In this document: piece by piece, positions 7,323-12,659 of the stretch
Numbering within the stretch: the stretch's first letter is position 1
Layout of the letters: each line of letters opens with the position of its first letter
Origin: Bacillota bacterium
GTDB taxonomy: Bacteria > Patescibacteriota > Patescibacteriia > Patescibacteriales > UBA12465
Length of the DNA stretch: 64,000 bases
Assembly: GCA_050259635.1 (NCBI GenBank)
Contig: JBLNBA010000002.1
Coordinates: 154,906-218,905 of the forward strand
Reading direction: 5' to 3'
The notes under the pieces: model-generated
Databases searched by the model: none
The model's input: the letters and a program-made list of their open reading frames with translations, nothing else
What the model was told of the DNA's origin: nothing
Position numbers and translations under genes: made by a program

Positions 7323-8831
7323 TTACTTCATCAGCAATTTTTCCAACAGGTCTCTTACCTTTTCCGGATTAGCTTTTCCTTTGGTTTCCGCCATAGCTTT
7401 ACCGACGAAGAATTGGATTAAAGGAGTTTTGCCATCGCGGTATTCTTGTGCTTGCCTGGGGTTCGCTCCGATAACGGCGCGGATCGCCTTCTCTAGTTCT
7501 TCCTCGTTATCCATCTGTTCCAGGCCTAATTTAGCCATGATATCCGTGGGGTCACCGCCTTCCGAATACATGATTTCCATGATACGCTGACCCGCGCTGG
7601 AGTTTACCTTGTTCTGCCAGATCAGAGCCATGAGTTCCGCAAAGTTCTCGGCGGTCATCTTGAGATCCTCCACTTTCTTCTTGTCGGCATTGAGATTTTT
7701 CAGGAGTTCGCCGCTTATCCAATTGGCGGCCATCTGCGAGGCGTTTTTGTCCTGTCGCTCAAAGTCATCGCCGTTCGCCTCGATCCAAGCGCCCATTTCG
7801 GATACGACGTTCTCAAAGAAACCGGCAAGATCCTTGTCGTTGGCAATCACTTCCGCAGTGTCTTCCCGCAGGGCGTACTGGCGGACGAAACGTTTTGTCT
7901 TGGCGGTTGGTAATTCCACTAACATAGTTTTTATTTGGTTAATCCATTCATCGTTTATTTGGATCGGAGGGATGTCCGGTTCGGGGAAATAGCGGTAGTC
8001 TGCGGCTGTCTCTTTGCGGCGCTGGGCGATAGTGATGTTTTTCTTGTCATCCCAACCCCTGGTTTCCGGGATGATTTCTTCTCCCTTTTCCAGAGCCTCG
8101 GTTTGACGGTTAATTTCGTGGTTGATGGCTTTTTCCACTGCTCGGAAAGAGTTGAGGTTCTTCACTTCCACCTTAGCGTTGAGCTTCATCCCTTTTTCCG
8201 GGTAGACCAGTCCGCCCGATATCTTATAGGCACCCTCTTCTTGAACGCTAATGTTGGCTTCACAGCGCATTTCTCCCTTTTCCATATCGGCGCCGCTAAC
8301 GCCTAGGAAGCGCAGGACGCGCTGATAGGATTGGCAAAAGCGCTTGGCTTCCTCGGCGCTGGTAATGACCGGGTCCGTCACTAGCTCTACGAGCGGAGTC
8401 CCGGCACGGTTGAAGTCTATGAGGGTATCGTTACTGCCAGCCCGATGGAAGGATTTTCCCGTGTCTTCTTCCAGATGTATGCGGGTAATGTCTATTTCCC
8501 GGCCGCCAATATCCAACTTCCCGCCTCGGCAGAAAGGCTGGTCGTATTGAGAAATCTGATACCCTTTTGGAAGATCGGGATAGAAGTAGTTCTTCCGGTC
8601 GAATTTTGAATCACGGGCGATATCGCTACCTAAGGCCAGGCCGATGAGAATGGTCCAGTCTATCGCTTTCTTATTTGGTACGGGAAGGGTGCCGGGATGG
8701 CCTAAGCAGATGGGGCATACCAAGGTGTTGGGCGCTTTGCCCTCGCTGTTATTTCCGCAGGAGCAGAACATTTTGCTTTCGGTCTTCAGTTCAGCATGGA
8801 TTTCGAGTCCGATAATGGCTTTATACTTCAT
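7323..8831 (-). CDS. gatB: Asp-tRNA(Asn)/Glu-tRNA(Gln) amidotransferase subunit B
   Basis: N-terminus MKYKAIIGLEIHAELKTESKMFCSC typical of GatB; about 500 aa. Confidence 0.85.
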   Translation of the reverse strand: MKYKAIIGLEIHAELKTESKMFCSCGNNSEGKAPNTLVCPICLGHPGTLPVPNKKAIDWTILIGLALGSDIARDSKFDRKNYFYPDLPKGYQISQYDQPFCRGGKLDIGGREIDITRIHLEEDTGKSFHRAGSNDTLIDFNRAGTPLVELVTDPVITSAEEAKRFCQSYQRVLRFLGVSGADMEKGEMRCEANISVQEEGAYKISGGLVYPEKGMKLNAKVEVKNLNSFRAVEKAINHEINRQTEALEKGEEIIPETRGWDDKKNITIAQRRKETAADYRYFPEPDIPPIQINDEWINQIKTMLVELPTAKTKRFVRQYALREDTAEVIANDKDLAGFFENVVSEMGAWIEANGDDFERQDKNASQMAANWISGELLKNLNADKKKVEDLKMTAENFAELMALIWQNKVNSSAGQRIMEIMYSEGGDPTDIMAKLGLEQMDNEEELEKAIRAVIGANPRQAQEYRDGKTPLIQFFVGKAMAETKGKANPEKVRDLLEKLLMK

Positions 8832-8869: not shown

Positions 8870-10204
8870 CTAGCGGAGTCCCGTGCTGCCGAAACCGCCG
8901 TCTAAGCGGCTGGTATCATTTTCCACCTTTCCTTCTTCTATCTTGGGAAATTCTACTTTCTGGATTAAGAGCTGAGCTATTTTCTGTCCCGCTTGGATAT
9001 TATATATATCTTCGCTCAGATTCTTGAAGACGACCATGATTTCTCCGCGGTAGCCGGAATCTATGACTCCGCCCATCGTCTTATATCCTTGGGCGGCTAA
9101 GCCGCTCTTATCCCAGATCAAACCGGCATACCCCTCCGGAATCATGAGCTTGACGCCGGTGCGGATGCGATCCGTGCCATAGGCGGGGACGGAGACGTTT
9201 TCGCAGGCATAAAGATCAAGGCCGGCATCAGTGGCATGTGCCCGCGTGGGCAGCTTGGCTTCTGCGTGAACTCTCTCGGCAAGGATTGCTGGTTTCTCAT
9301 TATCCGTGACAGAGGCAGGGAGGGCAGTGGCAGCGGTAACGGGGGTAAGATTCTCTCGCGTGTCTTCCGGGTGGGCGGGGACTCCTTTTTCTCCCCTGTC
9401 TGTTTGCCCGATCTCCGCTTTGGGGGTGTCGATGAACTGTGGCAGGTTACTGCCGATTTTTCCCTTGCCTACGAGGATATCCGCCACCGGTTGCATGCCG
9501 GCCGGCTTTTTCGTACCGCCGATGCTCAGGATGCGGTTGACATAGAGCCAGACAAGGTAGTTTATATCTTCTCGGCTCATAATCTCGCCGTTGCGGGTGC
9601 AGCGGATGAGACGGAAGTCCGGCATCGTCTGTGCTATTTCCAGATATACCTGTTCTGCTTTTTTGAGATGCTGCAGGTTTTCTTCGTGGATGTCTTTGGT
9701 TTTTCCTTTCCAATCCTCGCGTCCGCGGTCCTGAGCCATCTTTTGGGCTATTTCCGCCTCTACATGCAGGATGAGATAGAGATCGGGCTTGGGAATACGG
9801 AAGATCTTGTATTCGATCTCGCTTAACCAGTTGAAGAATAACTTCCTTTCCAAAGCGTTTTCTATTTTCCCCCCCTGGTGGGCGAAGCTGGCGGAAACAT
9901 AACGGTTACAGACCACGATCTTGCCCTGGGAAAGCCATTCGCGGATCTTGAAGCTGGCATCAAAACGATCGGTGGCGTATAAGATCGAGGCTGCATACGG
10001 ATTGACGTCATCTGCGCCTCCGTATTTTCCTGAGAGATATTCTTCCACCATGCCCGCGGATTTCTGATTATATTGCGGAAAGTCTGCCAACTCCACGTCG
10101 TATCCTTCGGCCGCGAGCTTGGATACCAAAAGTTGCAGCTGTGTAGTTTTGCCGCTGCCGTCGGTGCCGTCTATGACAATGAATTTTCCGGGATAGGATG
10201 ACAT
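8870..10204 (-). CDS. tmk-dut: fusion protein: thymidylate kinase (N-terminal) + dUTPase (C-terminal)
   Basis: Tmk P-loop IVIDGTDGSGKTTQ and DRFDAS motif; all five dUTPase motifs at the C-terminus (AGLDLY, KSG, GVIDSGYRGE, KIAQLL, RLDGGFGSTG); low-complexity linker about 100 aa. Confidence 0.8.
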   Translation of the reverse strand: MSSYPGKFIVIDGTDGSGKTTQLQLLVSKLAAEGYDVELADFPQYNQKSAGMVEEYLSGKYGGADDVNPYAASILYATDRFDASFKIREWLSQGKIVVCNRYVSASFAHQGGKIENALERKLFFNWLSEIEYKIFRIPKPDLYLILHVEAEIAQKMAQDRGREDWKGKTKDIHEENLQHLKKAEQVYLEIAQTMPDFRLIRCTRNGEIMSREDINYLVWLYVNRILSIGGTKKPAGMQPVADILVGKGKIGSNLPQFIDTPKAEIGQTDRGEKGVPAHPEDTRENLTPVTAATALPASVTDNEKPAILAERVHAEAKLPTRAHATDAGLDLYACENVSVPAYGTDRIRTGVKLMIPEGYAGLIWDKSGLAAQGYKTMGGVIDSGYRGEIMVVFKNLSEDIYNIQAGQKIAQLLIQKVEFPKIEEGKVENDTSRLDGGFGSTGLR

Positions 10205-10263
10205 AGGGATAAGAAAAAAGCGCCGGCATACGCCTGAGCACTCCTCCTTGCTTTTTTAAACTA

Positions 10264-10821
10264 TCATTTATTCTTTATTTCCTCAATAAGATTATCTAGC
10301 TGGGATTCCAGATTTTCCAGGTCGCCGTTATTATCCAGATGGAATGAGGCGGCCGCCATGGTTTCAGGGATCTGTTGCTCTGCTTCTCGGTTTTCGTCGG
10401 CCAGGAATTCCGGGTAGGTTTTTTCCGCGTCGCCGGCATTTTCATTGCGCTGTTTCATGCGTTCGTATCTGGTGTTGGGGTCGGCCTCGATACTGATCAG
10501 ATAGAACCCCGGTATGTCTTTTAGGGAGGAGATATCTTCCAAGCGGCGGACGCCGTCGATAACAACGATTTCGCTATCATTTTTAAGAGCATCTTCGGCA
10601 ATGACTCTCGATAATATATCGGCTCCAAAACGGTTACGTAGGTCCAGGGAAAGCCCTTGGAGGCCTTCACGGGTGGCAGGAAGGTACAGGCGGTCCATGA
10701 TGTCGCGTAGGGGCGTGGAGAAACGGGCGCTTTTGGCACCATATTTCTCACCTAAATATTTTTGGCAGACCGCTTTGCCACTTGCCAGGCGGCCGACGAA
10801 TCCGAGGACGAATCTTGCCAT
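10264..10821 (-). CDS. small P-loop kinase, dephospho-CoA-kinase(CoaE)-like fold with non-canonical Walker A (GRLASGKAV)
   Basis: P-loop near the N-terminus; VVIDGVR and HLDNNGDLENL segments resemble CoaE; function inferred only. Confidence 0.35.
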   Translation of the reverse strand: MARFVLGFVGRLASGKAVCQKYLGEKYGAKSARFSTPLRDIMDRLYLPATREGLQGLSLDLRNRFGADILSRVIAEDALKNDSEIVVIDGVRRLEDISSLKDIPGFYLISIEADPNTRYERMKQRNENAGDAEKTYPEFLADENREAEQQIPETMAAASFHLDNNGDLENLESQLDNLIEEIKNK

Positions 10822-10822
10822 A

Positions 10823-12121
10823 TTAGCGTTGTTCCTTCAATACGATGTCATGGAGTCCGCGGCGCACATCCCAATCATCCAGGTCTAGATCGCAGTGGAG
10901 CGCCACTTCCGGCAGATTCTGGCGGAGGGCTTCATACATCTTGTGGGCCACTCGTCTGAGACTAGGGTGGACAGTCTTTCCCGAGCGTAGTTCGGTTACA
11001 TAGATGGCGGAAGTGAGAGGGTTGGTGATGTGGCAGAAGACATTGAAGCCCATGGCGATGTAGTATTGCTTGAGTTCGGGGCTTGCTTCGAGTGCATCCA
11101 CCTTGGTTTTCTGGGAAGCGATGAGGTTCTCCGCATCAAGGCGCATCTCTTCTGGCAGCTGTTCTAGGTACCAAGATTGGAAACCGAGTTGCGTGGTGAG
11201 CAGAGGAGTGCGGGCGATAGCACTGCGGTGGCGCTGAATATCCCGATATGAACCGTAATCGAGTAGGAACTCGAAGCGGCAATTTCCGAGGTCGGCCATG
11301 AAATAGGGAAGATTGGTTTTGATCGGGCGCTTATCCAATGCTTCCTGGAAATTCTTCAATTCATTACGGTCGATGTCGGTTGAGAATGAGAATTCCTTGG
11401 GGTCTTTCGGGGCGAAATATGAATATTTTGCCATCATCTCTTCACGGTAGGCTTCTTGTTCCGGATATTGCTGGTGGGAAAAGCTGTTTTCATAACGGGA
11501 GCGCAGTTCGGCAAGAATCTGTTCGGCTAATTCGCGCATCTCCTGGAGAGGATGATGCCTGAGAAGAGAGAGCTTATCCCAGGCTTGGCGCAGATTGGTG
11601 TGCCAGCTGAGCTGAGTGGTGATGCCGGCCGGCAAAAAGCCGCGCATGATGTCGAAGGAGCGGGCGCTGATTGCCTTGTCATACATTTTCTCGTCCTCTT
11701 CGTCTCGGCGGGGGTATTTTTCCTTGAGGAAGGGAGTGATCCTTTCACGCCCTTTGATATAAAAATCCATCCAGGCATCGATAATCGCTTTGGATTCGGC
11801 AGTCGCTAAAGGGTCTATTATCGCTTGGCTGGCCATGTCGATGTAGCGGGTGCTGGTCTCCTGTCCGCTATATAGTGGCCAGTCCTGCACCGCCTTATCG
11901 GCTAGGATGCTCAAGCCTTCGATGAAGATGGTAGTGCTGCCGCAATCCGCAATAGAAGCGTGCCCGTAACCGACGTAGAACGTGGACATGAATTTGCCGG
12001 AGCCGCTCTGCCTTACTTTTTCCACATGCTCTTCGACGCTTTTTGGGCTGCGGGAATATAGCGCCTGCATCATGGCGGTGTCCTCCGGGTTGAACTCATC
12101 GTAGACGAATACTTTTGCCAT
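10823..12121 (-). CDS. thyX: FAD-dependent thymidylate synthase ThyX-like, long form (432 aa)
   Basis: N-terminal GYGHASIADCGSTTIFIEGLS resembles the ThyX core, and ...STRY follows; an RHR motif is present only in the second half (QRHRSAIAR); context with dCMP deaminase, Tmk and Dut. Confidence 0.5.
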   Translation of the reverse strand: MAKVFVYDEFNPEDTAMMQALYSRSPKSVEEHVEKVRQSGSGKFMSTFYVGYGHASIADCGSTTIFIEGLSILADKAVQDWPLYSGQETSTRYIDMASQAIIDPLATAESKAIIDAWMDFYIKGRERITPFLKEKYPRRDEEDEKMYDKAISARSFDIMRGFLPAGITTQLSWHTNLRQAWDKLSLLRHHPLQEMRELAEQILAELRSRYENSFSHQQYPEQEAYREEMMAKYSYFAPKDPKEFSFSTDIDRNELKNFQEALDKRPIKTNLPYFMADLGNCRFEFLLDYGSYRDIQRHRSAIARTPLLTTQLGFQSWYLEQLPEEMRLDAENLIASQKTKVDALEASPELKQYYIAMGFNVFCHITNPLTSAIYVTELRSGKTVHPSLRRVAHKMYEALRQNLPEVALHCDLDLDDWDVRRGLHDIVLKEQR

Positions 12122-12131
12122 ATGTTTGAAA

Positions 12132-12659
12132 TTATTGGTCTTTATATACTGTCATCATTTCGGAGGCCAGAAAGAATTCTACTTTTGCCAGTCCGAAAAT
12201 TTCTTTGCTTCGTGAACCGGCGTGGTAGTCCTGGGCGCAGACGACCCGTTTTATCCCGGCATTGATAATCATCTTGGCGCAGGTATAGCAGGGAGTCATC
12301 TTGCAATATAGCGTACCGCCTTCTAAGGGGATGCCCATGCGAGCCGCCTCGCAGATGGCATTCTGTTCGGCATGGGTAGTGCGGATGCAATGTCGGCTTG
12401 AGGTGCCGTCTTCGTGAGTAACGGTGTGCATCTCGTGCCCCACCTCATCGCAGTGGGGAGCGCCTACGGGGGAGCCGACATAGCCGGTCGCCACGATGCG
12501 GCGGTCTTTCGTTATCACACAGCCCGCGCGTCCCCGATCACAGGTACCGCGAGTGCCGACCATTACGGCGATTTTGAGGAAATATTCATCCCAAGCCGGG
12601 CGAACGTAGCTGTTTTCTTCGCTCATAGATTTCAGGTGAGATAATGAGGTTAAAAGCAA
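12132..12659 (-). CDS. dCMP deaminase (zinc-dependent cytidine/deoxycytidylate deaminase family)
   Basis: HAEQNAI ... PCYTCAKMI zinc-binding motifs; start may be the internal Met at about 12626. Confidence 0.8.
   Translation of the reverse strand: MLLTSLSHLKSMSEENSYVRPAWDEYFLKIAVMVGTRGTCDRGRAGCVITKDRRIVATGYVGSPVGAPHCDEVGHEMHTVTHEDGTSSRHCIRTTHAEQNAICEAARMGIPLEGGTLYCKMTPCYTCAKMIINAGIKRVVCAQDYHAGSRSKEIFGLAKVEFFLASEMMTVYKDQ

Follow-up and report, generated by a model that had tools for sequence, protein, structure and literature searches.

The window analysed here is a 64-kb stretch (64,000 nucleotides) of contig JBLNBA010000002.1 from assembly GCA_050259635.1, and its minus strand carries a gene, here called tmk-dut, in which a dTMP (thymidylate) kinase (Tmk) and a trimeric-type dUTPase (dUTP diphosphatase, Dut) are joined in a single open reading frame (ORF). 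The fusion and the read-through across its interdomain linker are genuine, and the fused form is the standard state in a large uncultured lineage of Patescibacteria, mostly Falkowbacteria-like. Judged from its sequence and predicted structure, the product is probably a genuine bifunctional dTMP kinase/dUTP diphosphatase, a reading to which we give a probability of roughly 0.8. The features of the gene are listed below, with nucleotide positions counted in the window and residues (aa) counted in the fusion protein.

8870..10204, minus strand: whole tmk-dut ORF, 444 aa, with the ATG at 10204 and the TAG stop at 8870-8872
9521..10204, minus strand: Tmk domain, aa 1-228, matching Pfam PF02223, TIGR00041 and structure 1g3u
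10142..10168, minus strand: P-loop GTDGSGKTT, aa 13-21, from invariant positions and the 1g3u alignment
9953..9970, minus strand: DRFDAS, aa 79-84, the thymine/dTMP-binding Asp-Arg motif, from conservation and the 1g3u alignment
9683..9736, minus strand: LID region AQDRGREDWKGKTKDIHE, aa 157-174, with the LID arginines R160 and R162 invariant
9290..9520, minus strand: interdomain linker, aa 229-305, 77 aa, predicted to be intrinsically disordered
9449..9511, minus strand: semi-conserved linker peptide, aa 232-252, consensus roughly K-x4-FQA[IV]sDI[LI]
8873..9289, minus strand: trimeric-type Dut domain, aa 306-444, matching Pfam PF00692, TIGR00576 and structure 1dut
9212..9229, minus strand: dUTPase motif I DAGLDL, aa 326-331, with D326, A327, G328 and D330 invariant
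9095..9112, minus strand: dUTPase motif II DKSGLA, aa 365-370, from conservation and the alignment with the feline immunodeficiency virus (FIV) enzyme
9041..9073, minus strand: dUTPase motif III GGVIDSGYRGE, aa 378-388, with the catalytic Asp D382
8969..8989, minus strand: dUTPase motif IV GQKIAQL, aa 406-412, with K408, A410 and Q411 invariant
8879..8908, minus strand: dUTPase motif V RLDGGFGSTG, aa 433-442, the arm that the fusion leaves unobstructed at its C-terminal end

The reading frame of tmk-dut contains no internal stop over its 444 codons, and its product is identical in sequence to NCBI protein MGE5425768.1. Run SRR24085901 has been assembled independently in Logan, and that assembly is 100% identical to the window over 17,335 bp, the entire gene included, and reveals no stop or assembly error that would split the ORF into separate tmk and dut genes. 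Among the homologues in the matches listed, 120 of 120 carry both Pfam domains, with 54-72% identity, 100% coverage and lengths of 414-477 aa. Moreover, the frame is held across the indel-rich, hypervariable linker in some 60 genomes, one per species, and in no fewer than 120 protein clusters, the data coming from various projects. Given the identical independent assembly and a frame left intact in about 60 species, the fusion is not an assembly error, and the single uninterrupted 444-aa ORF at 8870-10204 described by an earlier sequence-only reading of this DNA is borne out. That Dut might be translated on its own, beginning at an internal start, was also considered and was rejected, since the only in-frame ATG/GTG codons of the linker, codons 237 and 240, are not preceded by a Shine-Dalgarno sequence.

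The N-terminal half is recognised as a dTMP kinase by both Pfam (PF02223 Thymidylate_kin, aa 11-200, E 5e-26, 91.9 bits against a cut-off of 27) and NCBIfam (TIGR00041, 89.7 against the curated cut-off of 83.25). Its nearest solved structure is the Mycobacterium tuberculosis TMPK 1g3u, with a sequence E value of 1e-20 and a Foldseek template modelling (TM) score of 0.80 (target-normalised). In the AlphaFold2 (AF2) model, the predicted local distance difference test score (pLDDT) of the Tmk domain is mainly 80-93 and the final Tmk helix ends at residue 228; the score falls below 50 at residues 165-169 of the LID, as expected of a mobile lid. The P-loop residues G13, D15, G16, G18, K19 and T21 are invariant among 31 homologues; D15, in the place of the Asp that contacts the dTMP 3'-OH, and K19 correspond to D9 and K13 in M. 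tuberculosis TMPK. The DRFDAS motif is likewise conserved (D79, R80, D82 and S84 invariant), with D79-R80 aligned to D73-R74 of the M. tuberculosis enzyme. Further correspondences are F42-P43-x-Y45 with F36-P37-x-Y39, the stacking aromatic Y76 with F70, and R101-Y102 with R95-Y96. The complete Tmk with GTDGSGKTT and DRFDAS that had been proposed from the letters alone is therefore confirmed, both strings being located and the substrate-binding residues conserved. The window Tmk thus shares the P-loop, the FPxY, DR and RY motifs and the LID arginines with stand-alone Tmks of the M. tuberculosis type and differs from stand-alone Tmks in a C-terminal extension consisting of the linker and Dut. 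Against NF005923, which describes the actinobacterial subtype, it scores 118.8, under the cut-off of 193, and it is therefore not an ortholog of that subtype.

The C-terminal half is equally well recognised as a dUTPase (PF00692, aa 315-442, E 3e-33, 114.6 bits against a cut-off of 22; TIGR00576 dut, 125 against the curated cut-off of 102.55; NF001862, 115.3 against 103), so that a domain search with Pfam and NCBIfam recovers both enzymes with scores over the curated cut-offs. Among solved structures the best sequence match of this half is the FIV dUTPase 1dut (E 1e-26). The AF2 model has the jelly-roll dUTPase fold, with pLDDT mainly 80-92 and Foldseek matches to solved dUTPases, including TM scores of 0.73-0.86 (target-normalised) with the human and M. 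tuberculosis enzymes; the first Dut strand begins at residue 308, and low pLDDT at 438-444 fits a mobile C-terminal arm. All five conserved motifs claimed for a complete dUTPase were located and their catalytic residues are invariant, among them G378, G379, D382, Y385, G387 and E388 of motif III and R433, F438, G439, S440 and G442 of motif V. The window Dut thus has the five motifs and the jelly-roll fold in common with the homotrimeric dUTPases of FIV (1dut), human (2hqu), M. tuberculosis (1six) and Escherichia coli (1dud), and differs from stand-alone dUTPases in being tethered N-terminally to a second enzyme.

Between the two halves lies a spacer of about 77 aa, because in the model built from a 31-sequence alignment Tmk closes with a helix ending at residue 228, Dut opens with a strand at 308, and pLDDT is below 50 for residues 232-302. 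The sequence-only reading had described a low-complexity linker of about 100 aa. The compositional bias is real (G, P, T, A and K account for 53%), but the segment is shorter (229-305) and is not a simple repeat. In alignments of 120 and of 31 homologues the linker is the only hypervariable, indel-rich stretch of the protein, aa 1-228 and 306-444 being strongly conserved, and it has no Pfam match even up to E 10. In related genomes the two domain envelopes are 7 to 100 aa apart, with a median of 66 among intact fusions. The amino-acid composition of the linker follows genomic GC content with a slope of 1.66, about four times steeper than that of the folded domains (0.42), as expected under weak sequence constraint. 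Within the linker, the peptide 232-252 is confined to the long-linker clade; its I243 is at least 90% conserved, and a low-confidence AF2 helix is placed at 240-246. A clamp-binding or PIP-box identity of this peptide was dropped for want of a match by eye. No PDB chain spanning both a Tmk and a Dut domain was found.

To describe the distribution of the fusion, one genome per GTDB species was scanned, giving 543 relatives, of which the best 80 loci were examined. Nearly all of these loci are from metagenome-assembled genomes (MAGs) of Patescibacteria or Falkowbacteria, and about 60 of the 80 carry an intact in-frame fusion in the same operon slot. The earlier remark that this is not a standard architecture is hence wrong for this lineage, in which the 120 listed homologues are also all two-domain proteins. 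The intact fusions include five with variant yet intact motifs such as GVYD and RHGSSG (L048, L052, L053, L055 and L079). In L052, L053 and L055 the Dut halves carry the variant motifs DIGYDL, GVYDPGFRGE and RHGSSG, and a stand-alone Tmk paralog lies directly downstream of the fusion (7768-8583, 7352-8128 and 7611-8384, respectively). Four loci encode fusions in which Tmk is intact and Dut is dead, motifs I, II, III and V being lost (L069 5947-7053, L072 5445-6593, L074 1946-3052 and L077 124-1200), and a fifth, L066 (5941-6921), retains a Dut remnant of only about 80 aa. In L061 (5989-7326) and L068 (5959-7326) Tmk is joined not to dUTPase but to thymidine kinase (Tdk; Pfam TK, E 6e-27), which is a fusion of two consecutive salvage steps. 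The frame is broken in the linker in L058, a short contig, and in four of the 80 loci the fusion slot is occupied by tmk and dut as two separate genes side by side. The remaining loci have Tmk only, in some cases owing to the end of a contig.

The split pairs bear on the origin of the fusion. The stop and start codons of the two genes overlap as ATGA in L078 and are 4-5 nt apart in L060 and L075, the pair in L075 being separated from a fusion by one in-frame TGA; in L064 about 60 nt lie between stop and start. Because the stops and starts of these split relatives overlap or nearly abut, the fusion derives from a translationally coupled tmk-dut pair. In a rough neighbour-joining tree of the Tmk domains, the long-linker fusions form one large clade, and the short-linker fusions are mixed with split forms in another. 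The fusion is of long standing in the Falkowbacteria-like lineage, and the two genes have fused or split more than once. The genes around tmk-dut in the window share 62-81% identity with their counterparts in the nearest Falkowbacteria loci, and the region is therefore vertically inherited; across eight consecutive genes, the window is syntenic with Falkowbacteria/Patescibacteria MAGs at 62-89% identity. The NCBI label 'Bacillota bacterium' is probably wrong, and the 'uncultured Gammaproteobacteria' labels of some loci look like bulk-binning placeholders, since these loci share Falkowbacteria synteny and sequence. A phage or viral origin was rejected: a tblastn search of 50,697 phage records yielded 1321 hits to single domains, none spanning at least 80% of the query, and no fused relative was found in a scan of IMG/VR.

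The same Tmk subfamily also occurs in other fusions. In a representative library of 1.84 billion clusters at 50% identity, the best 150 hits were classified, and they include 15 Tmk-Dut clusters, 34 plain Tmks, one Tmk-Tdk (P0127) and one Tmk-Tmk (P0181). The sole Dut-Tmk among them, P0135 (376 aa), has its dUTPase at aa 12-139 and its Tmk at aa 159-333, so that Tmk and Dut have been joined in both orientations. About 92 of the 150, with lengths of 412-779 aa, have a ThyX-like region C-terminal to this Tmk (P0144-P0269, e.g. P0146, P0162 and P0175). In this group 29 of the 70 proteins tested match Pfam Thy1 directly and the rest are linked through an iterated profile; the canonical RHR-x(6-9)-S motif is present in only 2 of the 89 proteins of at least 480 aa. 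This large Tmk-ThyX-like fusion family is apparently undescribed. The Tmk-Tdk, Tmk-ThyX-like, Dut-Tmk and Tmk-Tmk fusions have in common with the window protein a Tmk of the candidate phyla radiation (CPR) type, with FIVI[DE]G.DGSGK..Q and DFPQY, and differ in the partner, the Tdk and ThyX steps being directly adjacent to that of Tmk whereas the Dut step is not. The Tmk subfamily is therefore a frequent fusion partner for enzymes of the dTTP pathway, Dut being one of several.

Single polypeptides with two activities of dTTP synthesis are known from the DHFR-TS of protozoa and plants and from the bifunctional dCTP deaminase-dUTPase (DCD-DUT). DHFR-TS joins consecutive steps, with documented channeling, and DCD-DUT carries out two reactions in one active site, whereas the window fusion tethers two non-consecutive steps flexibly. 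A full-text literature search found no description of a bacterial Tmk-Dut fusion and returned baculovirus papers only. In baculoviruses, Tmk-dUTPase fusions have been described as PeluSNPV Pelu112, ErelGV Erel005 and OpMNPV Op031, with both active sites judged intact (PMC4895240). An uncleaved product of about 37.5 kDa was detected by immunoblot, expression of the fusion sped up viral DNA replication, and the tmk part clusters with nudivirus and apicomplexan genes (PMC4895240). By the published description, these proteins have the same order as the window protein, with Tmk N-terminal and a trimeric-type dUTPase C-terminal, and the window gene has the baculovirus-type architecture of one ORF encoding Tmk and then dUTPase with conserved active-site residues in both. 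Their size of about 37.5 kDa would leave little or no spacer, whereas the window protein has 444 aa and a disordered linker of 77 aa. The bacterial and baculovirus fusions are likely of independent origin, because the bacterial one was formed in place from neighbouring genes of the operon.

The tmk-dut gene stands in an operon with the conserved order dCMP deaminase, ThyX or ThyA, small kinase, Tmk-Dut and GatB, beside which MiaA and MiaB are encoded on the opposite strand. In the window, its members are the following.

12132..12659, minus strand: dCMP deaminase, ComEB-like, a second source of dUMP (Pfam dCMP_cyt_deam_1, E 2e-23), conserved in relatives
10823..12121, minus strand: ThyX-like thymidylate synthase of 432 aa (Pfam Thy1, E 1e-19, aa 15-208)
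10264..10821, minus strand: AdkA-like/UPF0200 P-loop kinase of 185 aa, directly upstream of tmk-dut in nearly all 80 loci
7323..8831, minus strand: gatB, a conserved neighbour, 38 nt downstream of the tmk-dut stop

The 185-aa kinase matches PDB 3lw7 (E 7e-12). Together with the operon dCMP deaminase, it matches the two halves of NCBIfam NF041025, 'anti-phage dCTP deaminase', and in L076 (3268-4572) a deaminase and a kinase are joined in one ORF, with the deaminase N-terminal. Another fusion of neighbouring genes is seen in L057 (8787-11075), where MiaB (aa 18-446) and MiaA (aa 451-757) share one ORF. At many loci ThyA and then a DHFR-like ORF fill the ThyX slot (e.g. L002 4020-5350, where the gap between deaminase and kinase is 1.3 kb), which is a non-orthologous displacement of thymidylate synthase in an otherwise identical gene order. 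The window ThyX-like protein, at 432 aa, is about twice the usual size and scores 30 bits with TIGR02170, against a cut-off of 88. Its N-terminal half keeps SGQETSTRY and lacks the RHR motif; its C-terminal half contains YRDIQRHR, lacks the subsequent Ser/RY and matches Thy1 weakly (E 0.044). The halves show no mutual BLASTP similarity, and the protein may be a diverged tandem or pseudo-dimeric ThyX.

No Shine-Dalgarno sequence adjoining the tmk-dut start was found within 10205-10263 on the minus strand. A single strong Shine-Dalgarno-like sequence is present, AAGGAGGAG (nt 10243-10251); it stands 38 nt before the conserved ATG and instead precedes an out-of-frame ORF of 57 codons (10068-10241); a GC-rich hairpin with a T-run (10218-10235) lies between it and the ATG. 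Consensus matches for a promoter and a terminator of the gene's own were not above those in shuffled sequence (7 vs 5.6 and 12 vs 8.1).

For the bacterial members, we infer how each half acts, how it oligomerises and what advantage the fusion brings, as follows. The protein would consist of two independently folding catalytic domains on a disordered tether of about 77 aa, each working like its stand-alone relatives. The C-terminal Dut would trimerise and convert dUTP to dUMP and PPi, the operon dCMP deaminase would contribute further dUMP, the ThyX-like enzyme encoded two genes upstream would turn dUMP into dTMP, and the N-terminal Tmk would dimerise and phosphorylate dTMP to dTDP, the fusion thereby bracketing the thymidylate synthase step. 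In trimeric dUTPases the C-terminal arm with motif V must close over a neighbouring active site, and a Tmk placed at the N-terminus would leave this arm free. The benefit most likely lies in enforced 1:1 expression and a shared location of the two enzymes in a reduced genome rather than in direct substrate channeling, which is disfavoured because the reactions are non-consecutive, the tether is long, disordered and variable, and close relatives use separate genes. The earlier claim, drawn from the fusion, that uracil exclusion is coupled to dTDP formation therefore goes beyond the evidence, since the ThyX step intervenes, the linker is variable and the two genes are split in relatives. That the subfamily is also fused to Tdk, to ThyX-like regions and to Dut in reverse order points to a general consolidation of a co-expressed pathway rather than to a specific kinetic coupling.

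Several observations weigh against a fully bifunctional protein on a neutral tether. Four related genomes retain a catalytically dead Dut joined to an intact Tmk, which hints that the Dut fold may also serve structurally. No other Tmk or Dut was found within the 64-kb window, to which the search for extra copies was confined, and L052, L053 and L055 do carry a second Tmk. An invariant H109 stands where M. tuberculosis TMPK has Y103, the sole notable difference from that enzyme. Lys replaces the usual Arg in Dut motifs II and IV, a change compatible with activity because the characterised, active FIV dUTPase has the same residues (GKSS, QKIAQL). Finally, the semi-conserved peptide at aa 232-252 means that the spacer is not wholly neutral.

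Three other explanations were weighed against the bifunctional reading. A sequencing or assembly error in the linker that merged separate tmk and dut genes would fit the split adjacent genes of some relatives and the broken frame of L058, which is a low-quality 2.3-kb contig, but with an identical independent assembly, a frame conserved across genomes and protein clusters and no internal start bearing a Shine-Dalgarno sequence before Dut, such an artefact is effectively refuted already and its chance is negligible. It is very improbable, though less so than an artefact, that one half has a non-textbook role, Dut being mainly structural or regulatory or Tmk preferring another (d)NMP. The dead Duts of L069, L072, L074 and L077, the Dut remnant of L066, the stand-alone Tmk beside the fusion in L052, L053 and L055 and the His109 in place of the sugar-contacting Tyr of M. 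tuberculosis TMPK could be read in this way; however, the catalytic motifs of both domains are invariant or nearly so in the clade of the window, both halves exceed equivalog-level NCBIfam cut-offs, and the window holds no other Tmk or Dut.

A scaffold or metabolon has more in its favour and is nevertheless unlikely. Tmk-family enzymes are dimeric and dUTPase-family enzymes trimeric, and the combination of a Dut trimer with a Tmk dimer could force a higher-order particle (a D3 hexamer or an open lattice) with kinetic coupling; a linker peptide could in addition dock ThyX/ThyA or the small kinase, dUTP being carried to dTDP inside one assembly. Besides this mismatch, such an assembly would be in keeping with the bracketing of the ThyX step by partners that all lie in one tight conserved operon, with the very frequent direct fusion of the same Tmk subfamily to ThyX-like domains, with the semi-conserved peptide of the long-linker clade, and with the dead Dut kept in some lineages, suggesting a structural role. 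It is harder to reconcile with a linker of 7-100 aa that is mostly unconstrained, with short-linker fusions that do without the conserved peptide, with close relatives that function with separate genes, and with a single-chain AF2 model that predicts no domain-domain or domain-linker contact. Still more doubtful is the specific form of this idea in which the fusion is the hub of a thymidylate-synthesis particle, a hexamer or lattice built by the mismatch with peptide 232-252 recruiting ThyX/ThyA or the AdkA-like kinase. If it were true, dUTP sanitation and dTDP formation would be kinetically coupled in genome-reduced symbionts, and the retention of dead Dut would reflect scaffolding.

A bifunctional protein of two flexibly tethered enzymes thus remains the preferred reading, and the importance of the finding is modest. 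Public annotation calls these proteins either 'dUTP diphosphatase' or 'dTMP kinase', naming one activity only, so that tmk or dut may be counted as absent when the metabolism of Patescibacteria is reconstructed. A pan-genome study of Parcubacteria reported tmk as 'poorly represented' (PMC4508563), and Tmks that are atypical or fused may be part of the reason. Alongside the Tmk-Tdk, Tmk-ThyX-like and deaminase-kinase fusions, the Tmk-Dut fusion shows that the dTTP branch has been repeatedly consolidated into multidomain proteins in these reduced genomes, and the natural series from split genes through short-linker to long-linker fusions offers a system for asking whether tethering non-consecutive enzymes aids their kinetics.

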